Positions 332-22,146 of a stretch of 36,472 bases of DNA are shown in pieces (within the stretch, counting starts at the first letter, position 1; each line of letters begins with the position of its first letter). This DNA is from a virus (lineage: Duplodnaviria; Heunggongvirae; Uroviricota; Caudoviricetes): the IMG/VR virus record IMGVR_UViG_2700989508_000025. One strand, 5' to 3'. A program made the position numbers and the translations under genes. The notes beneath the pieces were generated by a model. The model worked only from the letters and a program-made list of their open reading frames with translations. It ran no database searches and was not told the DNA's origin.

Positions 332-592
332 TTAATTTTGAGGTAAGGGCAAACTCATCTGATTGTTTCCTTTGTGTGAAGCTGGCAGTTCATGCCACGG
401 GATACCTTCTGAAGAGTGAGCGCCGGAGGCGTGTTTCGATGTGAATTTATGGAAAGCTTCCAGTGTTGAGAAGCATACGCCGCATTCTAGGTTGTTACAT
501 TGGTAATACTTTTGCCGCACAGTGTTTGAATCATTTTCCGGACGACTAGTGCGGATACGGGCAGATGCGCCACAAAGTGGACAACGGAACAT
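332..592 (-). CDS. ogr: Ogr/Delta-family zinc-finger late gene transcriptional activator
   Basis: 86-aa ORF starting MFRCPLCGASARIRTSR...YYQCNNLEC, i.e. a Cys4 finger (CxxC...CxxxxC) like P2 Ogr. Strong SD (AAGGGAGG) sits just upstream of the ATG at 592. Confidence 0.85.
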   Translation of the reverse strand: MFRCPLCGASARIRTSRPENDSNTVRQKYYQCNNLECGVCFSTLEAFHKFTSKHASGAHSSEGIPWHELPASHKGNNQMSLPLPQN

Positions 593-802: not shown

Positions 803-1117
803 GTGGTTGCTGATCATGAATATTTGTATTGGAAGATAATTGCAATGAGCGAAAGAGTGTTTGAGAAAGAACTATATTCTGAATGGGTTATACGCAATAG
901 TCTATATTGGATGACTCCGCTTACTCGATGGAAACTCCATGAAGACGTTTCCCACTGGATAATCTCTTTTGAAAACGATAATCCCAAATTCCTTTATGAA
1001 TTCGATAGGCTGCTTAATGATTACTCTTTGCGAGAAAAGCTACAGCATAAAACAGGGGCGTTGAGAGACTCTATTGTCCATAAAGTGCTTCGCAGTGTTG
1101 ATGAGAGGCTTTCATAA
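803..1117 (+). CDS. Small protein, first gene of the hxs-like operon (HxsD-like candidate)
   Basis: 104-aa ORF whose TAA stop overlaps the ATG of the next gene (1117). No recognisable motif; the assignment is by operon position only. Confidence 0.4.
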   Translation: MVADHEYLYWKIIAMSERVFEKELYSEWVIRNSLYWMTPLTRWKLHEDVSHWIISFENDNPKFLYEFDRLLNDYSLREKLQHKTGALRDSIVHKVLRSVDERLS

Positions 1118-2505
1118 TGGAATTGATGCCATTTAATTTTGACAGATTGCCTAATGGACAGGTGTTTATAAGCAACCTTGCAGGTTTTCATCATTTCATT
1201 GGTGAGCAAGACCTTATTGATCTTTCTGATGAGCGAATTAGTTCGGAGCAATCAAACGTGCTAGAAAGTAAGCTTTTCATAACCAGTGAAAGCTCATCTG
1301 CTATAACTCCCTATGCTTTAAGTTCTGCTTTTGCAAAACGATTGATGAATGAACTGGCTGTCAGGCCAATTTTCATGATTGTACCCACATTACGTTGTGA
1401 CCATACATGCAAGTATTGCCAGGTTAGTAGAGCTTCTGTTAATGCCTCAGGTTACGACCTAAATCCTGAGCTCATCCCCGATATTATTTCGGCTATTAAA
1501 AAACTATCAACGCCACCTTACAAAATAGAGATACAGGGTGGGGAGCCTCTCTTGCGGTTTGATTTAATTCAGAGCATCTATGATCAATGTGCTGAAACGC
1601 TGGGAAGAACCAATTTTGAGATGGTGGTGGCATCAAGTCTGTCCGTCTTGAATGAGGATATGATTGAATGGTCGAGAGACCGGAACATAACGTTCTCTGT
1701 GTCGCTTGATGGTGAGGAAGTTGTTCACAACAGTAATCGAATTCTTGGTCGTGGGCTTGCGTACAGTAGAACAGTGTCAGGGGTAGAGGCTATCAAACAC
1801 TCTTTAGGTGCTGGCCGCGTTGCAACGGTTACTACAGTTACTAAAGAGCTTATCAAACGTCCTGAATCGATTGTTCAGGCTCACTTGTCTCTTGGTCTCA
1901 AGGACATGTTTATCCGACCTGTTAGTCCCTATGGGTTTGCACAAAAAGCTTCTTTCACCTTTTCTATGGACGAATACTTCAGCTTCTATGCCTCGTTGAT
2001 AGATGAAATCCTTAAGATTAATAATGAAGGGATAAGGGTTGTGGAACATTCGGCCTCCATTCATCTGAAAAGGATCTTCAATCCCGGTTTTAGTGGTTAT
2101 GCGGATTTAAAGTCTCCAAGTGGAGTCGTGCTTAACAGTATTCTTTTCAATTATGACGGTCGAGTATATGGTAGCGATGAGAGCCGTATGTTGCAGAAGG
2201 TGAATCCTGAAACGGAGTTCAGTGCGGGTGAAGTTAAGACGCTATCATTTTCTGATAGTCCTTACTATAACGCAGTATTGAGTTCATCGTTCAATTTTGC
2301 TCTGCCAGGTTGTGATACATGTGCATATCAACCATTTTGTGGTTCAGATCCATGCCAGAACATAAGTGTACAGGGTGAGCCTGTCGGTGATAGGAGTCGT
2401 TCAACGTTTTGTCAATATCACAAGGGGATGTTCAGGTATCTGATGAACTGCATCTCAGAGGGTGGTTCGAAGGCTGAGATGCTAAAAGGATGGGCATATG
2501 TCTGA
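1117..2505 (+). CDS. Radical SAM enzyme with C-terminal SPASM-type Cys cluster (HxsB-like maturase candidate)
   Basis: 462 aa. CxxxCxxC motif in LRCDHTCKYCQ, Gly-rich IQGGEPLL, and a C-terminal Cys-rich segment PGCDTCAYQPFCGSDPCQ typical of SPASM domains. Confidence 0.75.
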   Translation: MELMPFNFDRLPNGQVFISNLAGFHHFIGEQDLIDLSDERISSEQSNVLESKLFITSESSSAITPYALSSAFAKRLMNELAVRPIFMIVPTLRCDHTCKYCQVSRASVNASGYDLNPELIPDIISAIKKLSTPPYKIEIQGGEPLLRFDLIQSIYDQCAETLGRTNFEMVVASSLSVLNEDMIEWSRDRNITFSVSLDGEEVVHNSNRILGRGLAYSRTVSGVEAIKHSLGAGRVATVTTVTKELIKRPESIVQAHLSLGLKDMFIRPVSPYGFAQKASFTFSMDEYFSFYASLIDEILKINNEGIRVVEHSASIHLKRIFNPGFSGYADLKSPSGVVLNSILFNYDGRVYGSDESRMLQKVNPETEFSAGEVKTLSFSDSPYYNAVLSSSFNFALPGCDTCAYQPFCGSDPCQNISVQGEPVGDRSRSTFCQYHKGMFRYLMNCISEGGSKAEMLKGWAYV

Positions 2506-3610
2506 GGTTATCAGGAACGATATCTTTCATTTTGCTTCTACAGAGAACGTGCCCACGGGGTTCTATCGGTTATGCAAACAAAAACCAGTGAACCCTTTAT
2601 TCTTTTTGCCCAATTTGCTAGTAGTTGCTGAAGGCAATAATGATGCCATTCCACCATGCTTTGATTTCTCTGTTATTAGCACTGAATTATTTGAGTCAAT
2701 TGAAGATGGAGATATTGGGATAATCAACAATGGCAATATGATACGCGTTATTCTGTCACGCAAAGCCAATCATAATACTGTCTTAGTTACGGAACGCTGC
2801 AATAACTTGTGTCTGTTTTGTTCGCAGCCACCAAAGAAAATAAATGATGACTGGCTACTTACCCAATCAGCTCTTGCTATAGCTTCATTTGGCTTGAACG
2901 GAGTTGTTGGGGTCAGCGGTGGTGAACCTTTGCTATATGGGGATGACTTCCTTCACTTCATTGATTTTATCATCGAGAATTCACCAGATACTGCTTTACA
3001 TGTTTTAACAAACGGACGCAAATTTGCTGATATCAACTTTACACAGGAAATGGCAAAGCGAAGCAAAAAGATCAAAATCACCTTTGGTATCCCGCTCTAC
3101 TCATCAAGACCACTTGTGCATGATCATCTGGTAGGGAGTGATGGCGCATTTAATGAAACGGTTAAAGGGTTAATCAATGCAGGAAACTTGGGGATTAATA
3201 TCGAACTTAGAGTTATTCCTACACTGGCTAACTATACCGAATTGGATGATATTGTAGAATTCGCTGGCCGTGTGTTCTCCAACATCAATCAGATTTCCCT
3301 TATGGGGTTGGAGCCTATCGGTTGGGCACGAAAAAACTGGTCCACCATCTTCATTGATCACAGTAGTTATAGTGAGAAAATAATCTCTGCCATAGACGCT
3401 GCATACAGGTCAGGCATACCTCTGACAATTTTTAATTATCCTTTGTGTTATCTTCCTGAAAGGGCTAGGGAGCTTGCTGTTCAGTCGATCTCTGATTGGA
3501 AAAATTACTATCCAAAAGAATGTGATGAATGTACTCAGAAGCCTTCCTGTGCTGGCTATTTCAGTTCCTCAAAAGGCCGTTTTCATCAATCACCGAGACC
3601 AATTTTATGA
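2498..3610 (+). CDS. Radical SAM enzyme (HxsC-like maturase candidate)
   Basis: 370 aa. CxxxCxxC in TERCNNLCLFCSQ, Gly-rich VSGGEPLL, and C-terminal Cys residues (CDECTQKPSCAGYF). Overlaps the upstream gene by 8 nt and the downstream gene by ATGA. Confidence 0.75.
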   Translation: MSEVIRNDIFHFASTENVPTGFYRLCKQKPVNPLFFLPNLLVVAEGNNDAIPPCFDFSVISTELFESIEDGDIGIINNGNMIRVILSRKANHNTVLVTERCNNLCLFCSQPPKKINDDWLLTQSALAIASFGLNGVVGVSGGEPLLYGDDFLHFIDFIIENSPDTALHVLTNGRKFADINFTQEMAKRSKKIKITFGIPLYSSRPLVHDHLVGSDGAFNETVKGLINAGNLGINIELRVIPTLANYTELDDIVEFAGRVFSNINQISLMGLEPIGWARKNWSTIFIDHSSYSEKIISAIDAAYRSGIPLTIFNYPLCYLPERARELAVQSISDWKNYYPKECDECTQKPSCAGYFSSSKGRFHQSPRPIL

Positions 3611-4242
3611 AAAAGTTTAATTTTGCTGCTCTACTTCCGGGATTTTTGGCTCTCAACAATTCTGTATGGGCAAGCGATTCATCTACAGGAGCGAGTGATT
3701 TACCTGGTATGACTCTTAATGAGCATGATTTAGTGATAGCTCCACTTAACACGGAAGTCCCATTTTATATCGCAGGGCATCGAAGCCATAGCTCTCATAG
3801 GAGCCATAGCTCTCATAGATCCTCATCAGGTGGTGGATACTATGGTGGAAGTACCCCCTATTATCCAAAAACATACAGCTCACCACGTTCATCTGGTTCT
3901 TCAAGTTCAGGTGCAAGTTCCTCATCGTCCTCTTCCTCGGTGCGTGCACTTCGTTCTAACGATAATAATAGAACCACTAACACGAGTTCTGTTGGAACTT
4001 CAGAGGTTAACCGTACGAGTAATGGGCTTGCTTCTGATGCAGAGAAACGTAAGCGATTGATTATGCGAGTTCAGTTCGCATTGCTGGACAGGGGATTTTA
4101 TAACGGAAATATTGACGGCATAATGGGGCCATCCACAAGGCTGTCTGTGAAAAATTACCGCATTGCGAATGGATTACCGATTCCTGCAACTGAAACACTC
4201 GACACTCAATTGTTAAATTCTTTGAATATATTAGCTCGCTAA
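3607..4242 (+). CDS. Secreted His-Xaa-Ser repeat protein with C-terminal peptidoglycan-binding-like domain (HxsA-like precursor candidate)
   Basis: ATG at 3607 overlaps the hxsC-like stop. N-terminal signal-peptide-like MKKFNFAALLPGFLALNNSVWA. Five consecutive H-x-S triplets (HRSHSSHRSHSSHRS), then a Gly/Tyr and Ser-rich low-complexity stretch. The C-terminus (RVQFALLDRGFYNGNIDGIMGPSTRLSVKNYRIANGLPIPATETLD) resembles the PG_binding_1 fold. Confidence 0.7.
   Translation: MKKFNFAALLPGFLALNNSVWASDSSTGASDLPGMTLNEHDLVIAPLNTEVPFYIAGHRSHSSHRSHSSHRSSSGGGYYGGSTPYYPKTYSSPRSSGSSSSGASSSSSSSSVRALRSNDNNRTTNTSSVGTSEVNRTSNGLASDAEKRKRLIMRVQFALLDRGFYNGNIDGIMGPSTRLSVKNYRIANGLPIPATETLDTQLLNSLNILAR
3784..3819 (+). 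repeat. Tandem 18-bp direct repeat (agccatagctctcatag + g, two copies) encoding the His-Xaa-Ser triplets
   Basis: Read directly from the sequence: 3784-3800 and 3802-3818 are identical 17-mers. Confidence 0.8.
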
Positions 4243-4406
4243 ATCTCAGTGAGGTATAAATAAAAAGCAATAAATTATATTAGTCGCGCGTCCATTATTA
4301 GTGGGTAAGATCAAGGACCGTCTGCTCTGTGTTAGGGGCAGATGGTCAGATAAGACTGTGCCGTTTAGCCCGCTAGTACGTGTCTGGACTAATACATTTA
4401 AGAGTC

Positions 4407-5510
4407 TCATTCTGCTATCCATTCCGGGATTTTTGCCTCAAGCTCAAGCTGCGTGGTAAAGCCGCTGTTATCAATGGTGTGCTCGGCTTTCGCAATAATC
4501 CAGTCCTGATTATCAATCTCGCTTTTAAAGCCTGTTACCGTGCCATGCATTTCGGGGTAGAGTTCTGCGCGTCCACGTGCCAGTGTGATGGAGAACGCTG
4601 CGGCTCCGCGTTGTAGCTGCTGCCACTTTGCCGCCGCTGCGCGTCTTGCTGCCTGCTCGTTCTGATAAGTCTTGCGTAACACAAACACATTGCCTTCCGC
4701 GCCTTCCATATAATCACCTTCACGGCTGCTGCTTTTCTCCTTTTTGGGTTTTGGCGGTTTACGGCGTTTCACGCTGACTTTTTTCTTTTTCCCGTAATTA
4801 AGATCAAGCCAGTAGGCGCGTACCCCCGTATACGCCTCGCGGTCAGCAATACGGAACTGATGGCGATCGCCGCTGCTGCGTGTAATGGCGAACGAGGGCA
4901 ACGGCTGGCCCTGTGCGTTCACGCCACCACCTGGCATGATGAATAACAGATTGCCGCTTTTTACTGTGGTGATTGCGCCCAGCATTTCCGCCATGCGCGT
5001 AAGGAAGGACATGTCGCTTTCTTCGGTCTGGTCGGCGTGGTCGATTTCGATATCCATCAGCATTTCGCTGATTTGCGGTTTCAGACCATACCGATGAGCG
5101 ATGGCGGATACCACACGCTCAACGGTCACATCATGCCAGGACACCTCACGTTTAACGTTAAATTCATCCCGAAAATCTGCGCTTCTGGCTGAAACAGTCA
5201 GCCTGTCCGGCGGTCCTTCGTGAGCGATTTCATCAACAATGTAAGTGCCTTTTTCTGTCAGCGGTTCTCCTTTCCAGCCAATGAGAACCGTCAGGCGCGC
5301 GCCCCGTGGCGGTAGCTGCAACTGACCATCCGCATCATCCAGCGTGATGGTGAGCTGGTCCGCTTCAAATCCCCGGTTGTCGGTCAGTGACAGGCTCATC
5401 AGGCGCTCTGCCACGCCTGACAGCGTTTTACCCTCCGCGAGAATATCAAAATCCGGCATTTTCACGGGGTCTGTGCCCTGACTGAGCAATTGCATGGTGG
5501 TGTCGGTCAT
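4407..5510 (-). CDS. D: Tail protein D (late control gene D family)
   Basis: Track ORF 4407..5642 trimmed to the ATG at 5510 (MTDTTMQLL...), which is preceded by GGGAGGG. Similarity to gpD recognised by eye. Carries a Lys/Pro-rich insert (GKKKKVSVKRRKPPKPKKEK). Confidence 0.8.
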   Translation of the reverse strand: MTDTTMQLLSQGTDPVKMPDFDILAEGKTLSGVAERLMSLSLTDNRGFEADQLTITLDDADGQLQLPPRGARLTVLIGWKGEPLTEKGTYIVDEIAHEGPPDRLTVSARSADFRDEFNVKREVSWHDVTVERVVSAIAHRYGLKPQISEMLMDIEIDHADQTEESDMSFLTRMAEMLGAITTVKSGNLLFIMPGGGVNAQGQPLPSFAITRSSGDRHQFRIADREAYTGVRAYWLDLNYGKKKKVSVKRRKPPKPKKEKSSSREGDYMEGAEGNVFVLRKTYQNEQAARRAAAAKWQQLQRGAAAFSITLARGRAELYPEMHGTVTGFKSEIDNQDWIIAKAEHTIDNSGFTTQLELEAKIPEWIAE

Positions 5511-5667
5511 CTGTTCCCTCCCTGTGCGGCATGGTCGCATGTGCGTGCGGAGGGGGTTACTGCTTTTTGTTGTCGCCGTGGCGGGAGAACGGCGCAGGAG
5601 TGAGATTACGCGCGTGGTGGGTGATGATTGTTGCCGAATCATTTAACGGATACAAGGGGCTGAAGCT

Positions 5668-6852
5668 ATGAGTGAAACTCGTTTTCATGGTGCCCGTGTT
5701 ACGGAAAGTACCGACCTGGTAACAGCGATTAATGATGTTGATTCCAGTGTTATCGGTATCGTGGCAACGGCGGATGATGCGGACGCGGAGCTGTTCCCGC
5801 TGAACAAGCCCACACTGCTGACCCGCGTCAATGACGTGCTGGGAAAATGCGGGACAACGGGGACGCTTTATCGTGCGCTTAAGGCCATTGCAGACCAGGT
5901 GAGCACAAAGGTGATCGTCGTTCGCGTGGCTGAACACAAAGAAGAAGACGGAAAGACGCAGGATCAACTGGTTATCGGTGGTTCTGAATCTGACGGCAGC
6001 TATACGGGGATGTATGCGCTGCTTGTTGCAGAGCAGGATGAAAGCATCGGATACCGTCCGCGTATTCTGGCCGCGCCGGAGCTGGATACGGAGGCGGTGA
6101 CAAAATCCCTGTGCGTGATTGCGGGTAAACTGCGCGCGTTTGTGTATGCCTCATGTCATGGCTGTGACACGATGGCTGATGCGATTACCTACCGCCAGAA
6201 ATTCAACGAACGTGAGGTGATGCTCTTATGGCCGGACTTCATCGCCTACAACCCGAAAAGTGGCAAAAACGAAACGTTCCCCGTGCCTGCCTATGCGTGC
6301 GGCCTTCGTGCGTACATTGACCATGAGCAGGGATGGCACAAATCACTCTCCAACGTTCCGGTTAAGAATGTGCTGGGGATGTCGAGGCATGTGTTCTGGT
6401 CGTTGCAGGCCGAAGACAGTGATGCCAACAGCCTCAACAACAAAGAAATCACGACCATTATTCGTCGCAACGGGTTCCGCTTCTGGGGCAACCGCACACC
6501 GGAAACGAACGCCTACATCTTTGAGGTGTATACCCGAACCGCACAGGTGCTGGCTGATTCAATTGCGGAAGCGCAGTTTGAAACCATCGACAGTCCACTG
6601 ACGCCTGCGAACGTGAAAGATGTTATCAGTGCCATCAGGGCAAAACTGGATTCACTGGTTACTGCCGGGAAACTGATTGGGGCGTCGTGCTGGTATGACG
6701 TGGTGGATAACGGCACCACGGATTTACGTCAGGGGCGTGTGCGTATTCGCTACAAATATACGCCCGTTCCGCCACTGGAAGACATGGAGCTTTACCAGAC
6801 GTTTACTGATGAATTCTTTGGTCCCGCATTTGCGGTGCTGGGAGGTGCCTGA
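5668..6852 (+). CDS. FI: Contractile tail sheath protein FI
   Basis: 394 aa, the size of P2 FI (about 396 aa), followed immediately by the tube gene. Sheath-like sequence recognised by eye. Confidence 0.85.
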   Translation: MSETRFHGARVTESTDLVTAINDVDSSVIGIVATADDADAELFPLNKPTLLTRVNDVLGKCGTTGTLYRALKAIADQVSTKVIVVRVAEHKEEDGKTQDQLVIGGSESDGSYTGMYALLVAEQDESIGYRPRILAAPELDTEAVTKSLCVIAGKLRAFVYASCHGCDTMADAITYRQKFNEREVMLLWPDFIAYNPKSGKNETFPVPAYACGLRAYIDHEQGWHKSLSNVPVKNVLGMSRHVFWSLQAEDSDANSLNNKEITTIIRRNGFRFWGNRTPETNAYIFEVYTRTAQVLADSIAEAQFETIDSPLTPANVKDVISAIRAKLDSLVTAGKLIGASCWYDVVDNGTTDLRQGRVRIRYKYTPVPPLEDMELYQTFTDEFFGPAFAVLGGA

Positions 6853-7364
6853 TGGCTGTGCCAAAACATCTTCGCTTTTTTACGCTGTTTGTGGATGGTG
6901 AAAACGAAGTGGGTAAGGTGACGTCCGTCACTCTGCCTAAGCTGACGCGCAAAACCGACAGCTACCGGGGTGGTGGCATGATGGGTGCGGTAAGTATTGA
7001 TCTCGGTCTGGACGACTCCGCGCTTGATGCGAGCTTTGTCATGGGGGGCGCAGTTCGTGAGCTGTTCCTTAAGTATGGCGGCACGATTGACGGCACGCTG
7101 CTGCGTTTTGCGGGTGAATATTACACCGATGCAGAAAGCGACCTGTATGAAGTCGAAATGCGCGGACGTGTGACGGAAATTGATATGGGGGAAGCCAAAC
7201 AGGGCGAAGCCACATCACACACTTACGCCATTAAAAACACCTACTACAAGCTGAGTGTTAACGATCGCCCGTTGTGGGAGATTGACCTGCTGAACTTCAT
7301 TTACCGGAAGGACGGCAAGGACATTGTGCCCGATCGCATCCGTTCCGCGCTCGGGCTTGGCTGA
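6852..7364 (+). CDS. FII: Tail tube protein FII
   Basis: 170 aa, immediately downstream of the sheath gene (ATGA overlap). Size and position match P2 FII. Confidence 0.85.
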   Translation: MAVPKHLRFFTLFVDGENEVGKVTSVTLPKLTRKTDSYRGGGMMGAVSIDLGLDDSALDASFVMGGAVRELFLKYGGTIDGTLLRFAGEYYTDAESDLYEVEMRGRVTEIDMGEAKQGEATSHTYAIKNTYYKLSVNDRPLWEIDLLNFIYRKDGKDIVPDRIRSALGLG

Positions 7365-7418
7365 TAAGTAATATGCAGGCGGCGCAGTGCGTCGCCTCTG
7401 ACTGAAAGGAGTTTCCTG

Positions 7419-7784
7419 ATGAAAGAGACGAAAAACATCGATACCGAAAACACGGTCGTTGCTGACACTGTGAAAGAAACCAGTGAGCGTGGCGTAAAAC
7501 TTACCCAACCAATTGAGCGAGGCGGCGAAAAAATCACGTATGTGGAGATCACCGGAGCTATTGAGCAGGCTGGATCTCTGCGAGATTTGTCGCTGTCTGA
7601 TGTGCTGAATCTGAAAGCGGAATCCATGTTTACGCTGCTGTCACGCGTGACATCACCGCGACTGGATGAAGTGACGATCAAAAAAATGGCATCCCGTGAC
7701 TTTATTCAGTTATGTGTGGTTGCCGTAAATTTTTTGAGCGGTGCGGACTCTGGCGGGAAGAACGAACAGGCGACGGAAGCCTGA
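7419..7784 (+). CDS. E: Tail assembly chaperone E
   Basis: 121 aa, positioned between the tube and tape-measure genes. Contains the T6G slippery site near its 3' end. Confidence 0.75.
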   Translation: MKETKNIDTENTVVADTVKETSERGVKLTQPIERGGEKITYVEITGAIEQAGSLRDLSLSDVLNLKAESMFTLLSRVTSPRLDEVTIKKMASRDFIQLCVVAVNFLSGADSGGKNEQATEA

Positions 7785-7948
7785 TCACGGTTGTGTGCTT
7801 TGAGCACATAGAAGACTTTGTGGCAGATATTGCCGTTATTTTTAACTGGTCGCCCGCCGAAATCTTCATGATGACGCCCGGCGAAGTGGTTAGCTGGCGT
7901 GAGCGGGCGGCACTTCGCAGCGGGAATGCAGACAATGAAGACTCTTGA
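7419..7948 (+). CDS. Tail assembly chaperone E+E' (predicted -1 programmed frameshift product)
   Basis: The E frame (start 7419) and the downstream ORF 7712..7948 are related by a -1 shift. TTTTTTG at 7730-7736 lies in the overlap, as in the P2 E/E' site. Confidence 0.55.
7730..7736 (+). other. Slippery heptamer TTTTTTG (candidate -1 ribosomal frameshift site for E/E')
   Basis: Read directly: T-run 7730-7735, G at 7736, in frame context V-N-F-L of E. Confidence 0.55.
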
Positions 7949-10742
7949 TATCCGGGTCGCTTTCAGCGCCGTTGACAGGCTGACCCGGCCTGCCGAAAAC
8001 GCCCGCCGCCTGATGGGGCAGTTTGGTGACTCCATCCAGCGAACGCAGGGGGCGATCAAAAATCTCGAGCGTCAGGCGCGTTCATTTGAGCGCGCCCGCG
8101 ACGCTGTCAGTAAAGCGGATGCGGGTATCGTGAAAGCACGACGCCAGCTTAACGCCCTTAATCAGTTACAACGCACGGGTACAGTGCTCAGCGAAAAACA
8201 ACAAAAGCTGATGCAGCAGTTAAGCACCCGGCTTGAACGCCTGAATGAATCGCGCACACGGGAAATTCAGAAAATGCGGGAGCTTGGCGGAGAGCTGAAA
8301 CGCCACGGCATTTCCCTGACAGGCAGCGATAACACCATCCAGCAGGCCATCAGACGCACCGAACAGTACAACAACCAGCTTGAACGCGAACGGCAGGCGC
8401 TTGCGCGTGTAACGCGGGCGCGTGAGCGGTATTCGCGCGTGCAGGAAACCGCGGGAAAACTGAAAACAGGTGGTGCGCTGGCAATTGGTGCGGCAGCGGC
8501 TGGCGGCTATGCTGCCGGGCGTTTTTTACAGCCTGCGATCGGGTTCGGCAAAGAGATGTCCCGCGTTCAGGCACTGACGCGAATCGACAAAAACAGCCCG
8601 CAGTTTAAGGCTCTGCGTGAGCAGGCGTTAAAACTTGGCTCTGAAACGCAGTTCACCGCAGGCGATGCCGCCAGTGGGCAGGCATTTCTTGCAATGGCTG
8701 GCTTCACTCCGCAGGCCATTCAGGCTGCGCTTCCGGGCGTGCTGAGCATGGCAACGGCTGGCGGCATGGATCTCGGCGAGACGGCGGATATTGGCTCAAA
8801 TATCCTGACGCAGTTCGGCCTTTCTGCTGACCAGATGGACCGGGTTGGCGACACGCTCACCGCAGCATTTACCCGTACCAACACTGACCTTCGCGCACTG
8901 GGCGAAACCATGAAATATGCAGGTCCGGTGGCGGGCAAGCTGGGAATATCGCTGGAGCAGGCCGCAGCGATGGCGGGCGTGCTGGCGAATATGGGTATCA
9001 GAGGGAGTGATGCCGGGACGGCAATGCGTGCCAGCCTGGCTCGTCTGGCATCACCGCCAAAGGCGGCAGCAGAGGCGCTGAAAGAGCTTGGCGTGTCTGT
9101 CTCGGATGCCGGGGGCAAAATGCGTCCGATGGAGGATGTGCTGGCTGACCTTTATAAAGCTACCCGCAAATACGGGGAAGTTGACCGGGTATCGTTCTTT
9201 AAGGACATTGCCGGAGAAGAGGCTTTCACATCATTTATGGCCCTCGTTGATGCGGCAGGTGACGGCTCCTTACCCAAACTGAGAAAAGAACTTGAAGGTG
9301 CGCGCGGTGAGGCTGAACGCACGGCAAAGGTTATGGCCAACAACCTTGACGGCGATCTGAAATCACTCAGCAGTGCATGGGAAGGGTTGCGCATCCGCAT
9401 TGCAGATCTGATTGACGGTCCGCTGCGTTCTGTCACGCAGTGGCTCACGCGTGTGGTATCAAAGGTGACGGCGCTGGCGCAGGCCCATCCCGCACTGACG
9501 CGCCAGCTACTGATTGCAGGCGGTGCACTGCTGGCAATGACTGCAACGGTTGGCTCGTTGTCGCTGGCTATTGGTGTGCTTGCTGGCCCGCTGGCAAAAC
9601 TGCGTCTTGGTTTTTCCCTCCTGACCGGATCAATGAATGCTGTCAGGGTTCTGCCAGCACTATGGGGAATGGTGACGGGTTCCGTTTCTTTGCTGGGAGG
9701 CGCTATCGGGGCGTTGTTCAGTCCGGTTGGTCTTATCGTGGCTGCGCTTGCCGGAGCTGCCGTTCTTATCTGGAAATACTGGGATCCCATCAGGGCATTT
9801 TTTGCCGGGGTGTTCAGCGGGATTATGGAAAGGCTGACCCCGTTGCGCGAAACCTTTGAACGGTTTAGTCCTGTTTTTGACGCAATCGGGAGTGGGATCA
9901 GCCAGGTGTTTAACTGGTTTAAATCGCTGCTGTCACCGATGGAGTCCAGCAAGGAAACTCTGGATAAATGTACCAGTGCTGGCGAGATATTCGGTAACGT
10001 TCTTGGCGGTGCGTTACAACTTGTTCTGACACCTGCAAAAATGTTGCTGGATACGCTGGCGTGGATACTTGAAAAGCTTGGTGTGCTTCCGGATGAAGCG
10101 GAAAGGGCGCGCAAGAAAATCGAAGACGCACAGCGTGCGGCCATTCTTCAGGACAAGGTTGCCTTGCTTCAGGGGGACCTGGCGAAAATCAATCCGCCGA
10201 AGCCTGTGGAAAATGGCAATGGCACCGGAGGTGATAACCCCAAAGACAATAAACCGCTCACAGACAGCAATACCGGTACGCTGCGCAGACTCAGCAAAAT
10301 TGCTGATAACACAGGTAAGCTGGTTGAGGAGACGAAAAAACGCATTGGCCCCGGCGATATTGTCTTTAAAAACCTGCCCCGGGCACTTGCTGTTCGTGGG
10401 GAGTGGCAGGAGCGGAAGATTGCGCAGGTCAGTAAGCCTGCCCCCGCAATTAATATCACACCCGTGGTCCCGGCTCCGCTGCCTCCGGCGCTGGTCACTG
10501 TTGTTGCGGCCAGCTCCCGCCCGGTGGCGGAGGCTATACGATCTCCAGTGGCATCAGTTCCTGTAACTTCCCGTAACCGGGAGCCTGTTGCCTCCGAATT
10601 TGGTGGTGAAATTCATGTTCATCTGCATAACGTTGTTACGCAGAATCCCCGCGAACTGGCGAAACTGGTCGGTGAAATGGTCAGGGCAGAAATGGAACGG
10701 CGCGCCCGTGCCGGGCGTGGCAGTTTTTACGATAAAGATTGA
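7899..10742 (+). CDS. T: Tail tape measure protein T
   Basis: 947-aa ORF, coiled-coil-rich N-terminus and Gly/Ala-rich hydrophobic segments typical of tape measure proteins. Start is uncertain: alternative ATGs at 7926 and 7935, all overlapping the end of E'. Confidence 0.8.
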   Translation: MSGRHFAAGMQTMKTLDIRVAFSAVDRLTRPAENARRLMGQFGDSIQRTQGAIKNLERQARSFERARDAVSKADAGIVKARRQLNALNQLQRTGTVLSEKQQKLMQQLSTRLERLNESRTREIQKMRELGGELKRHGISLTGSDNTIQQAIRRTEQYNNQLERERQALARVTRARERYSRVQETAGKLKTGGALAIGAAAAGGYAAGRFLQPAIGFGKEMSRVQALTRIDKNSPQFKALREQALKLGSETQFTAGDAASGQAFLAMAGFTPQAIQAALPGVLSMATAGGMDLGETADIGSNILTQFGLSADQMDRVGDTLTAAFTRTNTDLRALGETMKYAGPVAGKLGISLEQAAAMAGVLANMGIRGSDAGTAMRASLARLASPPKAAAEALKELGVSVSDAGGKMRPMEDVLADLYKATRKYGEVDRVSFFKDIAGEEAFTSFMALVDAAGDGSLPKLRKELEGARGEAERTAKVMANNLDGDLKSLSSAWEGLRIRIADLIDGPLRSVTQWLTRVVSKVTALAQAHPALTRQLLIAGGALLAMTATVGSLSLAIGVLAGPLAKLRLGFSLLTGSMNAVRVLPALWGMVTGSVSLLGGAIGALFSPVGLIVAALAGAAVLIWKYWDPIRAFFAGVFSGIMERLTPLRETFERFSPVFDAIGSGISQVFNWFKSLLSPMESSKETLDKCTSAGEIFGNVLGGALQLVLTPAKMLLDTLAWILEKLGVLPDEAERARKKIEDAQRAAILQDKVALLQGDLAKINPPKPVENGNGTGGDNPKDNKPLTDSNTGTLRRLSKIADNTGKLVEETKKRIGPGDIVFKNLPRALAVRGEWQERKIAQVSKPAPAINITPVVPAPLPPALVTVVAASSRPVAEAIRSPVASVPVTSRNREPVASEFGGEIHVHLHNVVTQNPRELAKLVGEMVRAEMERRARAGRGSFYDKD

Positions 10743-10748
10743 GGAGTC

Positions 10749-11243
10749 ATGGCCATGATGATGATCTACGGCATGTTTGTTTTTGAGCTGCGCACGCTGC
10801 CGCATCAGCAGTTACAGCAAAACAAAAGCTGGCGGCATGTGAAAAATGAACGCGTTAACCGTTCAGCAAGCTGGCAGTATATCGGTGCAGGTGATGATCG
10901 CATCGTTCTTTCTGGTGTGCTTTATCCTGAAATTACAGGTGGCGAAGTGTCGCTGTCGCTGCTGACCACGCAGGCGTATACAGGACGACCCTGGCCTTTG
11001 ATTGATGGCGTCGGGCAGATTTACGGCATGTATGTCCTGACCGGAACGAATACGACCCGTTCCGAGTTTGATCGCTACGGTAAGGCGAAAAAGATAGAAT
11101 TTTCACTGACTCTTGAACGCTGTGATGAGGATTTGCGGGAGCGCCTGCAATCCTCATCGTTCAGCGATATGTTGTCCGGCTTCAAAGATAAGGTGACATC
11201 ATCCCTTAATAGCGCGACCAGCTCAGTTAAGGGGCTGCTCTGA
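10749..11243 (+). CDS. U: Tail protein U
   Basis: 164 aa, immediately after T. Resembles P2 gpU by my recollection (N-terminal MMM...FVFEL...SWRH pattern). Confidence 0.8.
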   Translation: MAMMMIYGMFVFELRTLPHQQLQQNKSWRHVKNERVNRSASWQYIGAGDDRIVLSGVLYPEITGGEVSLSLLTTQAYTGRPWPLIDGVGQIYGMYVLTGTNTTRSEFDRYGKAKKIEFSLTLERCDEDLRERLQSSSFSDMLSGFKDKVTSSLNSATSSVKGLL

Positions 11244-11319
11244 TTTAACGTATGTCGCCAATTTCCTGATGAAGGTGACTGGCGACTTGCTGTTGTATGT
11301 CCTTCTCAGAAAATTGTTT

Positions 11320-11348
11320 TTGAATAACAAACAACAGGATTTTATAAT
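11320..11348 (+). promoter_or_regulatory. Near-consensus sigma70-type promoter TTGAAT-17 bp-TATAAT upstream of the acetyltransferase gene
   Basis: Read directly: TTGAAT at 11320-11325, 17-bp spacer, TATAAT at 11343-11348. About 50 bp upstream of the GTG start at 11400. Confidence 0.45.
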
Positions 11349-11399
11349 CTCTTAACCTTATAATATGTGTCGTCTGAAATAATAATTAAGGAGATTATC

Positions 11400-11972
11400 G
11401 TGCTGTCTTACTTAATGGCAATTCACTTTGTTTTATTTGGGAACTCTACTAATTTAAAAAACTTCTGGAAATATGAAGTAATTCGGCGGAAACGTATGGA
11501 TATCTGGAGGCTTTTAAGAGAGAAAAAACAGCGTAACCGGAATTTCCTTTTCTGGTGGCGGTTGGCTAACGAAATGTATATTAATGGTAATAAATTACAT
11601 AAGAAAGCAGCCAAAAAGTTAAACAGTAAAATAATTAACAAATTTGGTTGTGAAATTGGATTGGGCGCAAATATTGGAAAAGGGTTAACAATTCCCCATC
11701 ATGCTGGAATTGTTGTTCATTTTGCTGTTGATGCTGGTGAAAATCTGGTGTTACGACAGAATACGACCATTGGACAGATAGATGGTGACATACCTGGTTC
11801 AAGAGTAAAAATTGGTAGCAACGTTGATATCGGAGCTAATTGTTGCATCATTGGATTATCCCGTAAAATTGGGGATAATGTAAAAATAGGTGCAATGTCT
11901 TTTATAAATAAAGATATACCATCGAACTGCACATATATAACTAAAAAGAGCGGTGCTGTATTGTATAAATAG
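11400..11972 (+). CDS. Hexapeptide-repeat (left-handed beta-helix) acetyltransferase, serine/sugar O-acetyltransferase-like
   Basis: Repeated [LIV]-G-x-x-x-x-I motifs (GANIGKGLTI, KIGSNVDIGANCCIIG, KIGDNVKIGA). Start placed at GTG 11400, preceded by AAGGAG at 11388-11393; the track ORF starts at an earlier GTG (11367). Region is AT-rich by eye. Confidence 0.7.
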   Translation: MLSYLMAIHFVLFGNSTNLKNFWKYEVIRRKRMDIWRLLREKKQRNRNFLFWWRLANEMYINGNKLHKKAAKKLNSKIINKFGCEIGLGANIGKGLTIPHHAGIVVHFAVDAGENLVLRQNTTIGQIDGDIPGSRVKIGSNVDIGANCCIIGLSRKIGDNVKIGAMSFINKDIPSNCTYITKKSGAVLYK

Positions 11973-11980
11973 AGTACATA

Positions 11981-12018
11981 AAGCCATCGATATTTCTATC
12001 GATGGCTTTTTCTTTTTA
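11981..12018. terminator. Hairpin with flanking T-runs between the convergent acetyltransferase and G genes (candidate bidirectional intrinsic terminator)
   Basis: aagccatcgata-tttc-tatcgatggctt followed by tttctttttatt. Read directly. Confidence 0.55.
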
Positions 12019-12594
12019 TTGTGGGGCGACTGGCCACTCAATATCTGCTGCTACTGTTGTATCAACACGATGCAACAATACTCGATATGTCTTCCATGCA
12101 GCCAGTAACGATGTCTCTTCCTCCGTCGCAATATCTAAATCTATAGCATCCTGAAGTGGTGCAATATGCTCACTGGCTACCTGCATCAGGCTGTTTTTTG
12201 TTTCTTCCGCCTCCCTTATCCGAAATAGTTTGTCTGCTTCTGCATCTTTCACCCAGGATGTGCCGTTCCACTTCTGATACTCTTCATACGGCGACAACCA
12301 GGTAACATTTTCCGGTAACGGACCGAGTTCAGAAATAAATAACGAGTCCCCTGATGCCACGTCATAAACCGTTTTACCCCGATGGTCTTCAACGAGATGC
12401 CACGATGCCTCATCACTGTTGAAAACGGCCACGAAGCCAGCCGGAATATCTGGCGGGGCAATATCGGTACTGTTTGCAGGCAGACCTGTATGAGGTGGAA
12501 TGTATGCATCACCTTCACCAATAAACTCATTGGTTCCGGTCAGTAGATTATAAATTTTTATGGTCCGTGATTGTTCACTCATTCTGAATGTCAT
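12016..12594 (-). CDS. G: Tail fibre assembly protein G
   Basis: 192 aa, directly downstream of the tail fibre gene (ATGA overlap at 12592-12596). Position matches P2 G. Confidence 0.7.
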
Positions 12595-14726
12595 TATGCA
12601 AGCCTCACAATATAGTTAAATGCGATGTTTTTTACGGTGTTTTCTGCGTTCCCCGTAGCATTAACGGTGATGGTGTGTCCGTGGGGACCAATAATGACAG
12701 AATGGGCATGAGCACCAATGCCGATAGTGTGGTTATGGGCACCGATATATACATTGTGAGCATGCTCTCCTGCGCTCGACGTGGTACCAGTACCTAACGC
12801 AGCGTTATAACCGGCTGATACACCATTCCCCGCGCCAGTGTGACCAACAGGTATATTGTGTGAATGAGCTCCTGCGCTATTTGTGGTTTTTGTGCCGTAA
12901 TCAAATGAACTGGTCGTTTTAGTACCGTAATCAAACGACGATGTGGTTTTCGTCCCCAAATCCGTACTGGATGCGCTGGCGCTGTGGGTGTGCGATTTTA
13001 TGCCGTCCTGTTCCTGAGACAATACGGCCCGACCACTGGCAGGTTTGCCCTTAATCGTCCAGCCACGCATATCAGGGATCACGCCTGACGGATAAGCGGC
13101 TGCAAGTTTCGGGTATGCAGATTTGTCAAAAGTCTGCCCCTGCATCAGGGCATAACCAGACGGAACGGTATCTGATGGCCACGGGATTGGTGCACCGACT
13201 GGATAAAACTCTGCAGGAGGATGAGCCGAGGTGTAAAGCTGCGCCCACGGCGACCAGTTTGCGTCGATCGTATCCCGTCGTGAACGAATAAATGCCGGAG
13301 CATGAGCACCGCTTGTACCACTCCAGCCGATGAGTAACTCACCTTCGCCAACGGCTGTCATCCCTTTCAGGTGAATGATATTTCCATACGTTGTTGGATA
13401 TCCGTTGTTATACGCCTCGTATAACTCCAGACCTGTGGCCCCCTGCATATTATCTGTCAGGGCGGTCAGCCGACCTTTTGAAGCCAGATTAACTGACGAT
13501 ACTGCTGTCCCATCTGACGGTAACGCCCCGATCTCTGATGCTGTTGGCTTATTCCTGGAGTTATAGTCCCTTCGCCAGCCAGGAGCATAAGCATCACCAT
13601 GATTAATATAAGTAAATTGAGCATTAGGGATGCCTTCACCGCTGGATGTACTCGGTGTGGTAATGCGTATGGTCATTGCGCCGCGGGTGCCAATAACTTC
13701 CACAACAGCACCTGCAAGACAAATATTTCCGCAACCTGTATCTGTAATGACCTTATTACTTGCATAAGCCCATGAGCCTTTGCACATCCAGTAAGGATGG
13801 TTAAATGCCCCCTGACTCTCTAGCCAAAAAATCAACTGCGCAGTTGTCCATGCTTCACTATCTCCACCAATATTCAGCTCTGCACTATATGCACGGCAGG
13901 CACCGATATTTTTCGTAAAGGTGTCTTTGTCAGAGATATCCTCACCATTCTTAGCTTTCTGCAGACGTTTTTCAGCATTGTCATAGGCAGCTTTTACTGC
14001 ATTTGATGTTGCCGCCAGCGTTTCAGATGTACTGTTGGTTGCACTACTAAGCTGGACAAGGCCTTTTCGCGCTGTTGTGGCATCCTGCGCTGTATATTTT
14101 CCGTTAGCAAGATCATACGCGACCTTAACCGCTTTCGGCGTTGCAGCCAGCGTTTCAGAATCGCTGTTAGTGGCGCTACTGAGTTGAACAAAGCCTTTTG
14201 CGGTCAGCGAGGCATCCGGGTGACGTCGTGACTGTTCATGCTCTTTCAGTTTGTTATCCACGTAATCCACTGTGGCCATAACCATGGTGTTATCCACGGT
14301 AAGCGCCACGGTGGCAGTGCTGGATACTGTCAGAATGGTGCGAAATGTTTGTGCACGTCCGGACCCTTCGGCAACGGCTGGCTTGTAACTTTCGGCAGTA
14401 TTGCCCACCGCGATTAAATCGCCGTGCTCATCAAACACACCAATTTCCCGGATCCAGAATCCTCCCGTTTCAGGAGGAATAACCAGCTCCGCAATAATGC
14501 GGTTCTGATGTGTTGCGTCCAGGATGACGCGATTAACAGTATGTCGCCACACCTCATGCACCAGACGGGTCTGCTTACTGTCTGGTGTGGGCAACGTGCC
14601 GCCACCGTCGCCCACGGCCATGTGAGTCAGGCGGACAGGATTACCATCTGGCGCGGCTGCCTGAGCTAATTTTTTGGCACCAGTATCAGTGATAATGGTT
14701 TTAAATTTTCGTGTTGTGGTACTCAT
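12594..14726 (-). CDS. H: Tail fibre protein H
   Basis: 710 aa. Internal roughly 40-aa repeats (LSSATNS.SETLAAT...KAAYD), and a C-terminal tip with [10 protein letters not shown] repeats and His-rich HxH-type repeats ([23 protein letters not shown]), as seen in P2 and T-even fibre tips. Confidence 0.85.
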
Positions 14727-14728
14727 GC

Positions 14729-15259
14729 TTAATCGTCCGGATAAATGGTAATGACTTCACCGTCGTAAGTTGCTGCCGCCGCGAAAATATCCCCCGGGAT
14801 CTCCTGAATGATATTCAGCCCTGTCATGTGGCGGCTGACCGGGCGGGCATCAGCAATCAACCGCTCCATTTCCAGATACATTTCCTCCGTCACGCCACTG
14901 TCCAGCGTGCCGACTTCAACGGTAAATGTTCCCGGTTCTCCGCCGAACTCCCACCACTCAGACACACGAATGAGGTATCCCAGCGGCTCAATGGCCCGGC
15001 GCAGTGCGCTGATGGTCCCTTTGTGTCGGTGTATCAGCCATGCATCACGAATCACTTGTCGCTTTGTCTCTTCCGGCCAGTTGCGATCCCAGCGGTCAAC
15101 GGAAAATGCCCAGGCGAGATAAGGCAGCAGATGCACCGGGCAGGTGTCCGGCGACCACAGCGTGTTGAGGTCTACCGGAGTGTCTGTAATGCGCGTTCCG
15201 ACAGCTTCGGCACAACGCATGAAATTGCTGGCTGATGGCGGTAACAGTGAATTACTCAT
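14729..15259 (-). CDS. I: Baseplate protein I
   Basis: Track ORF 14729..15292 trimmed to the internal Met (MSNSLLPP), giving 176 aa, the size of P2 gpI. Sits between J and H. Confidence 0.7.
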
Positions 15260-16148
15260 TACGCCCACCTTCGCTGATGGTGAATGACTCACAGCGCGCC
15301 GCCTGTATGTCGCTGATGGCCATATTTTGTGTGGGTTCGATTATCTCCACGCGTTGCACACCGTGCACATGCAGTGCGGCAGCAATGGCTGACAACGCCA
15401 CGTCCTGACCGATAAGCCCCTGCTCAGACAGCCACTTCCTGAACGACGATTCCGCCGCGGCCAGAATAGGTTCGGATTCCGGGCCGGGGTAAAAGTACAG
15501 TTTTGCATTCAGCCGCCATGTCACGATTCTGGCACTCTGTACGGTCAGGCGGTCGGCCACCGGGCGGGTATCCTCTGCATTCAGAACGGCGCGAACGGTA
15601 TTAAGCAACGCCTCCGTTGCTGTGCCGTCGCCCTCAGTGGACAGGATGGAAACCGTCACACAGGCCGGAGACGGGCTGATGGCCCGCGCATCACGCATCA
15701 GACCGCTGGCGCTGCGTGCAAAATACTCGTATGCACCTGACGGGCCAGCAACACTCAGGCCGTCATACGCCCGTTGCGCCCGCAATCTCAGCGAGGTGTC
15801 GCTCTCCATCACCGCGTCGGTGGTATCCGTTGCCGGAGTGATAACCAGGCGCTTTGTGTTCATATTGCCCGCGAGGTTGTCCAGGTTTGTCCCTGAACCG
15901 TGGCTTAACATGCAGGCGCGTGCGCCCTCGTTAACCCGCTGGCGTAACAGCATTTCACGAAAAGACATGGTTTGAGCGATAACGTTCAGGGGTTCCGATT
16001 CCAGCTCCAGCGCGGCGGAGACGGCTTCACGCTGTTCGGCAGGATAGGACGCAATCATCATGGCCTTTGTGTCAGCCAGAATTGCCTCAAAATCAGGCTC
16101 CGCGATGATGGCGGGTTCCGGTAACTGGGAAAGGTCAACAGCAGGCAT
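15252..16148 (-). CDS. J: Baseplate protein J
   Basis: 298 aa (P2 J is about 302), between W and I. Confidence 0.8.
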   Translation of the reverse strand: MPAVDLSQLPEPAIIAEPDFEAILADTKAMMIASYPAEQREAVSAALELESEPLNVIAQTMSFREMLLRQRVNEGARACMLSHGSGTNLDNLAGNMNTKRLVITPATDTTDAVMESDTSLRLRAQRAYDGLSVAGPSGAYEYFARSASGLMRDARAISPSPACVTVSILSTEGDGTATEALLNTVRAVLNAEDTRPVADRLTVQSARIVTWRLNAKLYFYPGPESEPILAAAESSFRKWLSEQGLIGQDVALSAIAAALHVHGVQRVEIIEPTQNMAISDIQAARCESFTISEGGRNE

Positions 16149-16151
16149 GAT

Positions 16152-16502
16152 TTACTCTCTCAGCGTGATGGTTAATTCAACATTCTGCATGGTCTGCATG
16201 ACAGTGCCCGACAGCGTCACCCCGGCGCGGCCTCCTGCCTTCCAGACAACGTCGATGGCGTCCAGGGCAATGCGGGGTTCCCATCGTGTCAGCGCAATCA
16301 CGGCAGCACTCATGCATTGCAGACGAGTTGTGTTATTCATGGGTTCGTCAATCAAATCAGGCACAAGGCTGCCATATTCCCGTCGCATAACCCGGCTTGC
16401 CAGCGGGGTGATCAGGATGTCCCTGACTGACTGTTTCAGGTGCTCCATATCGTTCAGGTTTCCCGTCCCGTCCGGATTCATTCCTGTGTAGCGGGTTGTC
16501 AC
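16152..16502 (-). CDS. W: Baseplate protein W (gp25-like)
   Basis: 116 aa, size and position of P2 W. Confidence 0.8.
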   Translation of the reverse strand: MTTRYTGMNPDGTGNLNDMEHLKQSVRDILITPLASRVMRREYGSLVPDLIDEPMNNTTRLQCMSAAVIALTRWEPRIALDAIDVVWKAGGRAGVTLSGTVMQTMQNVELTITLRE

Positions 16503-19426: not shown

Positions 19427-19428
19427 TG

Positions 19429-20132: not shown

Positions 20133-20224
20133 TCCTGAAAAAATCGGGCGGTGGGTGCGCGGTGTAAACGGTCACGGAGTCAAACCGGAACACCGCGCAC
20201 GCCGCCCGCTGACGGGGTCAGTCG

Positions 20225-21025: not shown

Positions 21026-21070
21026 TTGTTCTCTCCGTTACTGGCGGGCATGATGCCCGCCGTGAGTTGA

Positions 21071-22123: not shown

Positions 22124-22146
22124 AAAAAATTTGCTCCTTTGTCTTA

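Follow-up and report, generated by a model that had tools for sequence, protein, structure and literature searches.

A probable P88-like prophage carries its FI-FII-E-T-U tail genes in an orientation fixed throughout its clade

In a large clade of P2-related phages of Enterobacterales, the tail genes FI-FII-E-T-U have a fixed orientation, opposite to that of P2. The window analysed here, the whole 36,472-nt stretch of DNA in IMG/VR record IMGVR_UViG_2700989508_000025, is very probably an intact P88-like (Xuanwuvirus-type) prophage of the family Peduoviridae in Escherichia coli, with this clade-fixed orientation derived from a single old inversion and with an Ogr-type box that works in two directions. 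An earlier note on this DNA had implied that the arrangement is anomalous, an unusual rearrangement or possibly an artefact, and that part of it gives way here to a finding that the note itself had named as refuting it, that related phages are normally so arranged. Because this is the standard fixed order of working P88-like phages, the finding is an ordinary one. The arrangement is already known, and as the outcome of a genome scan it carries little weight, since a phage group that is common, classified, and propagated in experiments has this order as its standard.

We placed genes by tblastn of the annotated P2 proteins (NC_001895) against the window, using PHROG and Pfam profiles as a cross-check. 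The minus-strand matches to O, N, M, L, X, R, S, V, W, J, I, H, and G lie between 22971 and 12019, and those to D (4422-5456) and ogr (395-592) are on the same strand; the plus strand carries FI (5686-6819), FII (6852-7358), E (7485-7739), T (7944-10103), and U (10755-11135) in their P2 internal order, the layout that the earlier note had described. The genes concerned are as follows:

332-592, minus strand: ogr, Ogr/Delta-type zinc-finger late-gene activator (PF04606, E=5e-14; 38% identity to P2 Ogr; PGAP, ogr/Delta-like zinc finger protein)
4407-5510, minus strand: D, tail/baseplate hub (PHROG 52, E=1e-165; Pfam Phage_GPD; 48% identity to P2 D)
5668-6852, plus strand: FI, tail sheath (PHROG 23, E=2e-124; 45% to P2 FI)
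6852-7364, plus strand: FII, tail tube (42% to full-length P2 FII; major tail tube protein in P88 and PGAP annotations)
7419-7948, plus strand: tail assembly chaperone pair, E (7419-7784) and the E' extension (7793-7948) (PHROG 103; P2 E tblastn match)
7935-10742, plus strand: T, tape measure (PHROG 28, E=7e-217; 33% to P2 T; start as in PGAP)
10749-11243, plus strand: U, tail protein, final gene of the inverted block (Pfam Phage_P2_GpU, E=1.5e-38; 46% to P2 U)
12016-17080, minus strand: G (tail fibre assembly), H, I, J, W, and V, fibre and baseplate genes convergent with U (profiles and tblastn; Pfam Caudo_TAP for G)

On the complementary strand, D begins with the codon at 5508-5510, a start at 5510 that agrees with the P88 annotation, and the FI ATG lies at 5668; D and FI thus diverge across a 157-bp spacer (5511-5667), as had been proposed. 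The further claims that U (stop at 11243) and G (stop at 12016) converge across an acetyltransferase locus (11400-11972, plus strand), and that FI-FII-E-T-U is inverted relative to P2 such that flipping it back restores the P2 order, also hold. Because the homology with P88 stops at 11249, we place the conserved inverted block at approximately 5511-11249; the acetyltransferase is part of a separate variable cassette outside it. The E' frame is -1 relative to E by coordinate arithmetic, and the E' segment of the window is what PGAP calls a 'GpE family phage tail protein' (locus 22994-23149). PHROG 55 labels FII as 'head closure', which we regard as a library mislabel given the P2 FII match and the P88 and PGAP annotations.

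The assignment to Peduoviridae draws on gene content and late control. Genes Q, P, O, N, M, and L, which serve the head and packaging, match their P2 counterparts at 36-47% identity (tblastn), with Q and P on the plus strand and divergent from the minus-strand O-N-M-L. The P2 genes for a contractile tail and its baseplate (V, W, J, I, H, G, FI, FII, E, T, U, D, R, S, and X) likewise all have a match, with tblastn E-values of 2e-9 to 1e-110 and agreement from PHROG and Pfam. An Ogr/Delta zinc finger and TGT-N12-ACA-type boxes at 5571 and 23056 supply the late-control features of the family. The synteny is not that of Peduovirus, where FI-FII-E-T-U-D are co-oriented after V-W-J-I-H-G, FI-U being here on the strand opposite to D and V-G; it is that of the Xuanwuvirus type phage, with D and ogr sharing a strand, FI-U pointing away from D, and the fibre genes pointing towards FI-U. 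P88 and the window are collinear at 88-98% nucleotide identity (blastn), and one unbroken 6840-bp match spans D, the D|FI spacer, and FI-U. Segments of at least 300 bp matching P88 cover about 26.8 kb of the 36.5 kb (73%), for an overall similarity of about 70%, which is below full because of the cargo and the fibre cassette. The ICTV guideline for a genus is approximately 70% nucleotide similarity. A 1601-bp query across the D|FI junction is 100% identical in E. coli 03_3013, where the element lies beside ihfA, and a tRNA scan of the window found none.

P88 and the Citrobacter phage phiSM are annotated with this order, and so are phages of three other Peduoviridae genera: phiT5282H (Novemvirus), 3LV2017 (Reginaelenavirus), and ST16-OXA48phi5.4 (Reipivirus); P88 is plaque-forming and has been imaged by electron microscopy (PMC5285337), and phiSM is plaque-forming and lysogenises (PMC6456863). 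The D|FI junction is found at 95-100% identity in 1116 of 5426 complete E. coli genomes (about a fifth). The canonical U-to-D joined junction, sought with a chimeric probe made of the U 3' end and the D 5' end from the window's own sequence, occurs in none of the 1414 genomes with a match among those 5426. A survey of Enterobacterales using one genome per species yielded 59 inverted and 20 canonical loci, the inverted ones from about 30 genera. D is at least 61% identical to that of the window in the inverted loci (all 59 loci at this level are inverted) and at most 53% identical in the canonical loci. Gene order cleanly divides the sampled enterobacterial P2-related phages into two lineages, and can be used as a simple clade marker.

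It is hardly credible, then, that the orientation reflects misassembly, or a recent inversion confined to this strain, perhaps leaving the prophage tail-defective: nothing beyond the departure from P2 order speaks for this, the junction recurs in complete genomes of E. coli produced by many laboratories and also in phage genomes that were sequenced independently, and the canonical junction is absent from all E. coli genomes examined. Phages with the same order (P88 and phiSM) form plaques, and, except for the exchanged G and H C-terminal fibre cassette, each of the window's own tail genes aligns with its P2 homologue in full or for the most part. For annotators, an inverted FI-U block warrants no misassembly flag. 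A literature search for an explicit account of the inversion in P88-like phages found none, and the P88 paper presents the P88 modules as P2-like (PMC5285337).

As to its origin, we infer one old inversion, with breakpoints just upstream of the activator box of the PF promoter and between U and D, that was then inherited. The FI-U block is 32-46% identical to P2 and the remainder 26-72%, and identity does not shift abruptly at either edge of the block (tblastn); the inverted loci form one clade without a canonical member in the D, FI, and U trees (unbootstrapped neighbour-joining, rooted on P2, as was the J tree). The J tree is incongruent with these three, which indicates mosaicism. Phage genomes are mosaic, and this disagreement of a baseplate gene, together with the neighbouring fibre cassette that has clearly been exchanged with lambdoid and other phages, could be taken to suggest that the FI-U module was acquired by recombination from another contractile-tail phage and inserted by chance in the opposite orientation. 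We consider such an acquisition unlikely, since FI, FII, E, T, and U resemble P2 to the same degree as do the head, baseplate, and D genes on either side, one and the same inverted clade emerges from each of the FI, U, and D trees, and the box ahead of FI is, as in canonical relatives, of the P2 type. A single inversion and module replacement by recombination are nevertheless not formally distinguishable.

Could the FI-U block instead be a programmed invertible segment, flipped by a site-specific recombinase like the Mu G, P1 C, and P88 fibre segments? The suggestion has some appeal in that, in P88 and phiSM, the gene for a serine DNA invertase sits precisely at the U|G junction, and gix-like crossover sites flank the fibre segment. 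We think it exceedingly improbable, however, for the window. No DNA invertase gene is present among its ORFs at either junction, and a query with the gix-like sites of P88, allowing up to three mismatches, gave no matches in the window. The earlier note saw no obvious inverted repeats by eye, and the systematic search that it proposed (region 5300-12200, seed 8, minimum length 12) agrees: it found only short chance-level pairs of 71-93% complementarity, none of them linking 5511-5667 with 11244-12015. Moreover, a single orientation is found in the 1414 E. coli genomes and the 59 loci from other species, and a flip would part D from its predicted promoter.

The elements of the D|FI spacer, and a related box elsewhere in the window, are:

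5511-5667, no strand assigned: D|FI divergent spacer, proposed two-way late promoter region (157 bp; alignment across four genera; offset analysis)
5571-5588, no strand assigned: Ogr-type activator box TGTCGCCGTGGCGGGAGA (TGT-N12-AGA), centred at 5579.5, the single such box in the spacer
5531-5536, minus strand: predicted D -10 hexamer GACCAT, preceded by TGc, 46 bp from the box centre, with a predicted start near 5524
5623-5628, plus strand: predicted FI-operon -10 hexamer GATGAT, 46 bp from the box centre, with a predicted start near 5635
23056-23073, no strand assigned: second Ogr-type box TGTAAGAAAACGGCCAGA, in the O|P divergent spacer (22984-23137)

TGT-N12-ACA is given as the consensus of P2 late promoters in a passage of PMC3931495 that cites Christie and Calendar 1985 and Julien and Calendar 1995. 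The strict form has three matches in the window (17382, 25454, and 26193), none of them in the D|FI spacer; the match at 26193 falls in a non-coding stretch after Q. The box at 5571-5588 has AGA rather than ACA as its right half-site, and it is recognised only by comparison with relatives: it is preceded by an invariant TTTTTGT, and TTTTTGTTGT is unchanged in six aligned D|FI spacers from four genera. In form it resembles the activator sites that are annotated in P2. The 5571 and 23056 boxes are near-identical, and are the only two such boxes in the window with an adjoining -10-like hexamer.

We scored -10-like hexamers (A at position 2 and T at position 6) in 44 distinct spacers. The fraction with such a hexamer has a sharp peak at the 46-bp offset, 0.98 towards FI and 0.86 towards D, compared with at most 0.20 at other offsets, and on the D side a further 11% have it at 47 bp; because these spacers are related by descent, part of this conservation reflects shared ancestry. 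The spacer sequences have diverged, and the box-to-hexamer spacing is kept. Among canonical relatives, an FI-side hexamer is found beside 12 of 13 boxes and a far-side hexamer beside two of the 13. Thirteen of the 59 inverted loci, mostly in Xenorhabdus, Providencia, and Yersinia, lack a strict box under the pattern used. A search of the D|FI spacer for a sigma-70 consensus promoter found none, which fits an activator-dependent promoter, and the layout matches that of Ogr-dependent late promoters: an activator dyad about 55 bp upstream of the predicted start, a -10 element, and no good -35. A start near 5524 would leave D a leader of only about 14 nt.

From this conservation we infer that the D|FI spacer acts as a two-way late promoter, which would explain how D is expressed. 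A single Ogr-binding box that arrived with the FI promoter would now stand between FI and D, and the rearrangement presumably works because this one box acts in both directions. Rightward, the site would recruit RNA polymerase to the -10 at 5623-5628 for transcription from near 5635 of FI through U; leftward, the same site would recruit it to the -10 at 5531-5536 for transcription of D from near 5524. Late transcription may then issue from two two-way regions, O|P and D|FI. We lean towards the broader view that the inversion was accompanied by a rewiring of late transcription, in which the PF box became two-way, serving FI-U and the newly separate D, V-G fused with the O operon, and two symmetric Ogr boxes came to serve all late genes, as compared with the three boxes and four late promoters of P2. 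The literature searched contains no statement of such rewiring. If true, the rewiring would be a natural case of one activator site making a large operon inversion tolerable, and the conserved, symmetric D|FI spacer offers a testable model of one Ogr box serving two divergent promoters.

The convergent U|G junction contains two further features:

11254-11286, plus strand: hairpin just 3' of U, candidate FI-U operon terminator (fold of 11240-11310, -22.3 kcal/mol, z=-3.5)
11320-12009, plus strand: cargo gene, hexapeptide (serine-type) acetyltransferase at 11400-11972 (weak Pfam Hexapep; PHROG 2154; PGAP, 'serine acetyltransferase')

As the U run after the first hairpin is weak, its role as a terminator is putative. 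The acetyltransferase has its own sigma-70-like promoter (11320-11348, match 10/12), and the strong hairpin that follows it (11980-12009; plus-strand z=-6.9, minus-strand z=-8.2) faces G as well. We suggest that this convergent junction serves as a slot for variable cargo. Between ogr and D lies the hxsDBCA defence operon, identified from PGAP names and PMC13128918; PADLOC gave only weak, generic radical-SAM matches for the cargo genes. The U|G and D/ogr junctions, made or exposed by the rearrangement, would be cargo slots, filled here by an acetyltransferase and an HXS anti-phage system.

The block resembles the Gin/gix (Mu), Cin/cix (P1), and Hin/hix (Salmonella) switches in being of opposite orientation and adjoining tail fibre genes, with an invertase at one junction in relatives; it differs from them in lacking an invertase, crossover sites, and flanking repeats, and in its one orientation in the genomes examined. 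P88 (KP063541, the Xuanwuvirus type species) and phiSM match the window in order and strand for ogr, D, FI-FII-E-E'-T-U, the fibre, baseplate, lysis, and head genes, P, and Q, and their D|FI spacers are nearly identical to that of the window (two to seven differences in 187 nt). P88 and the window differ in what the U|G junction holds: a DNA invertase and an alternative, invertible fibre cassette in P88, and the acetyltransferase, a lambda-like H C-terminus, and tfa in the window. In the ogr-D interval, where the window has hxsDBCA, P88 has nothing.

P2 shares with the window its gene set, the internal order of each block, the Ogr activator, and TGT-N12-ACA-type boxes. Its order is V-W-J-I-H-G, FI-FII-E-E'-T-U-D, ogr, with FI-D forming one PF operon on the V-G strand; the window departs from this in its inverted FI-U, in a D gene that stands apart and is divergent, and in the overlap of S with V, and no separate PV box was found there. 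A close parallel to the proposed D|FI arrangement is the PP/PO region of P2, which likewise has one central shared box with promoter elements placed symmetrically around it, in a spacer of 173 bp, similar in length to those of the window (D|FI, 157 bp; O|P, 154 bp). The mapped P2 starts at 3016 and 3127 are exactly equidistant (55.5 bp each) from the annotated centre of the PP/PO activator site (3071.5). The P2 layout is experimentally mapped and serves head genes, whereas that of D|FI is predicted from sequence and would serve FI-U and D.

The window holds a complete P2-related prophage. Its content, listed below, was read from its ORFs, from scans against PHROG and Pfam, and from a tblastn search with annotated P2 proteins.

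1-141, minus strand, Hok/Gef
332-592, minus strand, ogr
845-4242, plus strand, four-gene cargo operon hxsD-hxsB-hxsC-hxsA (His-Xaa-Ser system, two radical-SAM maturases), between ogr and D
4407-5510, minus strand, D
5668-6852, plus strand, FI
6852-7364, plus strand, FII
7419-7948, plus strand, E/E'
7935-10742, plus strand, T
10749-11243, plus strand, U
11400-11972, plus strand, acetyltransferase gene
12016-22983, minus strand, G, H, I, J, W, V, S, R, lysis genes, X, L, M, N, O
23138-25935, plus strand, P and Q
right end, early region, with C and integrase last

The earlier note had described FI-FII-E-T-U as inverted relative to P2, and its observations are borne out: P2 proteins place FI, FII, E, T, and U on the plus strand with their P2 internal order kept, and O through G, D, and ogr on the minus strand (tblastn); D and FI are separated by 157 bp (5511-5667), U and G converge with the acetyltransferase gene between them, and we likewise found no inverted repeats joining the two junctions. 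The conserved block ends at ~11249, six bases past the U stop codon, where P88 homology also ends, and the acetyltransferase belongs to a separate variable cassette outside it. The E. coli 03_3013 chromosome is 100% identical to the window across a 1601-bp D|FI junction query, with ihfA adjoining the element. In the PGAP (RefSeq) annotation of an identical prophage, D is split into a 'VgrG/Pvc8 family' protein, cut short at 265 aa, and a fragment marked as a pseudogene (window 4407-5642; 19608-20455 in that prophage's locus, L008); the D reading frame is open in the window and its alignment to P2 D spans residues 15-378, so this looks like an annotation quirk and not a broken gene.

A megablast search of phage genomes with 4300-12700 gave single unbroken matches from the D 3′ end through the spacer to the end of U, at 94.6-97.8% identity, in P88, PhiR44_2, P884B11, phiSM, 500465-2, and Chuche; in 520873 and 503458 an IS100 element breaks the match into two pieces. 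The deposited P88 and phiSM annotations have every tail gene on the same strand as in the window, and the two phages are viable: after induction, P88 was plaque-purified, propagated, and imaged by electron microscopy (PMC5285337), and phiSM forms plaques and lysogenised K-12 (PMC6456863). When the junction region alone (4800-6400) was used as a blastn query at higher sensitivity, divergent D|FI junctions with 67-72% identity emerged in Enterobacter phage phiT5282H (Novemvirus), Serratia phage KSP20, Klebsiella phages 3LV2017 (Reginaelenavirus) and ST16-OXA48phi5.4 (Reipivirus), and many more Klebsiella prophage records. The annotations of phiT5282H, 3LV2017, and ST16-OXA48phi5.4 agree throughout: D and the fibre genes run leftward, as does ogr wherever it is annotated, and FI to U run rightward. 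The inversion holds as a comparison with P2. As an anomaly it is refuted by the condition that the earlier note itself set, since relatives carry this orientation normally; published, classified, and propagated phages already have the arrangement, and what is new is only a model, drawn from sequence, of a late promoter lying between D and FI, shared by both and acting in two directions.

The orientation is fixed. The D|FI junction is present in 1116 of 5426 complete E. coli genomes (coverage at least 80%), nearly all at 95-99% identity. We also made an artificial canonical junction by fusing the final 600 bp of T and U to the opening 600 bp of D, co-oriented; 1414 E. coli genomes match one or both halves, and in none of them are the two joined. 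Scanning a D-protein alignment against one genome per bacterial species yielded 80 loci, which we classed by tblastn with the window's own proteins: 59 are inverted (D identity to the window 61-99%), 20 are canonical (47-53%), and one lacks FI-U. Hosts of the inverted loci span ~30 genera across Enterobacterales, including Salmonella, Klebsiella, Enterobacter, Citrobacter, Kosakonia, Pantoea, Erwinia, Brenneria, Pectobacterium, Serratia, Yersinia, Hafnia, Edwardsiella, Morganella, Providencia, Xenorhabdus, and Photorhabdus. Among these survey loci, L010 (NZ_JBQPOM010000071.1, 'Vagococcus sp. WN89Y') is a P88-like prophage with D 98% identical to the window's on a contig assigned to a Gram-positive, and is probably enterobacterial contamination of the Vagococcus assembly. 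Two Yersinia loci, L082 (Yersinia sp. HM-2024) and L088 (Yersinia nurmii), have V-W-J(-I) immediately before D, except that U intervenes in L082; FI, FII, and T were not detected in either, and these may be degraded prophages or have a different tail-gene layout.

Neighbour-joining trees rooted on P2 were built for D, FI, and U; in each, the inverted loci all fall into a single clade that includes no canonical locus. The J tree is mixed, which shows the usual module exchange. In that tree (loci L009-L088), some Rahnella, Yersinia, and Pantoea prophages of canonical order have a J that falls among those of the inverted clade, with identity reaching 77.5%, showing that baseplate modules have been exchanged between inverted and canonical lineages. 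FI-U identity to P2 is 32-46%, comparable to the remaining genome, which argues more for an inversion in place than for a module imported from elsewhere. Most simply read, a single old inversion occurred and has been inherited since.

Both the U|G and ogr-D junctions are cargo slots. At the U|G junction, the counterpart of the Z/fun position in P2, a hairpin follows U and a strong hairpin faces both ways; the acetyltransferase gene is low-GC with its own sigma-70-like promoter. The region 11250-13973 is a variable host-range cassette of the acetyltransferase, a lambda-like tail fibre assembly gene (tfa), and the H C-terminal part, all with 92-93% identity to the unrelated E. coli phages vB_EcoM-Ro157c2YLVW and JL22; tfa and the H C-terminal part also have ~89% identity to lambda stf/tfa. 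P88 and phiSM instead carry an invertase with a gix-like invertible fibre cassette there (in P88 the invertase is of the serine type, and the invertible segment, which encodes an alternative fibre, has gix-like sites at 8889-8953 and 11929-11993 of its locus, L001), and ST16-OXA48phi5.4 a DUF262 gene. At the other slot, ogr directly follows D in P88, whereas hxsDBCA sits there in the window. Recent work showed that the hxs operon encodes the HXS anti-phage system, which keeps phage DNA from entering, and according to the same paper most hxs operons lie outside prophages (PMC13128918). The window's operon is prophage cargo, and is common to the ogr-D site of 89 of the 5426 E. coli genomes, O26:H11 11368 among them; in other genomes this site holds a PIN-domain gene or is empty.

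In P2, U and D abut as annotated and D closes the PF operon; cut off by the inversion, D would need its own promoter. Aligned D|FI spacers of four genera share an invariant TTTTTGTTGT, which starts a TGT-N12-A(G/C)A box, the form annotated in P2 as activator binding sites; TGT-N12-ACA is the consensus of Ogr-dependent late promoters (PMC3931495). The predicted elements are as follows.

5531-5536, other strand, -10-like hexamer GACCAT preceded by TG, exactly 46 bp left of the box centre, D side
5571-5588, predicted Ogr-type box in the D|FI spacer, centre 5579.5
5623-5628, -10-like hexamer GATGAT, exactly 46 bp right of the box centre, FI side

This region would act as a two-way Ogr-dependent promoter, reading FI-U one way and D the other, with a short predicted D leader of 14 nt. 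Hexamers whose second base is A and whose sixth is T were counted per offset from the box centre in 44 distinct inverted-clade spacers; at 46 bp the FI side has a fraction of 0.98 and the D side 0.86 (plus 0.11 at 47 bp), and other offsets reach at most 0.20. Where canonical relatives have the box upstream of FI, the FI-side hexamer is present in 12 of 13 and the far-side hexamer in 2 of 13. Of the more distant inverted loci, 13 have no strict box.

Only one further box of this form with an adjacent -10-like hexamer is found in the window, in the O|P spacer at 23056. From these comparisons, we propose two two-way Ogr-dependent promoter regions, from which four late transcription units would be read: P-Q, O through G, FI-U, and D. 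A perfect TGT-N12-ACA match (TGTTGTGTCGCTGCGACA) also lies past the portal gene Q, in non-coding DNA (26193-26210); it may be a further Ogr-type site, be related to cos, or have arisen by chance. Whereas P2 has a separate PV promoter, no separate Ogr-type box for V was found in the window (17077-17080 and 16499-22983), where the V start overlaps the S end; the baseplate and fibre genes may belong to one long O-to-G operon. The window encodes Ogr, and its D|FI spacer repeats the design of the P2 P/O box, whose centre at 3071.5 is the exact midpoint of the mapped transcription starts at 3016 and 3127.
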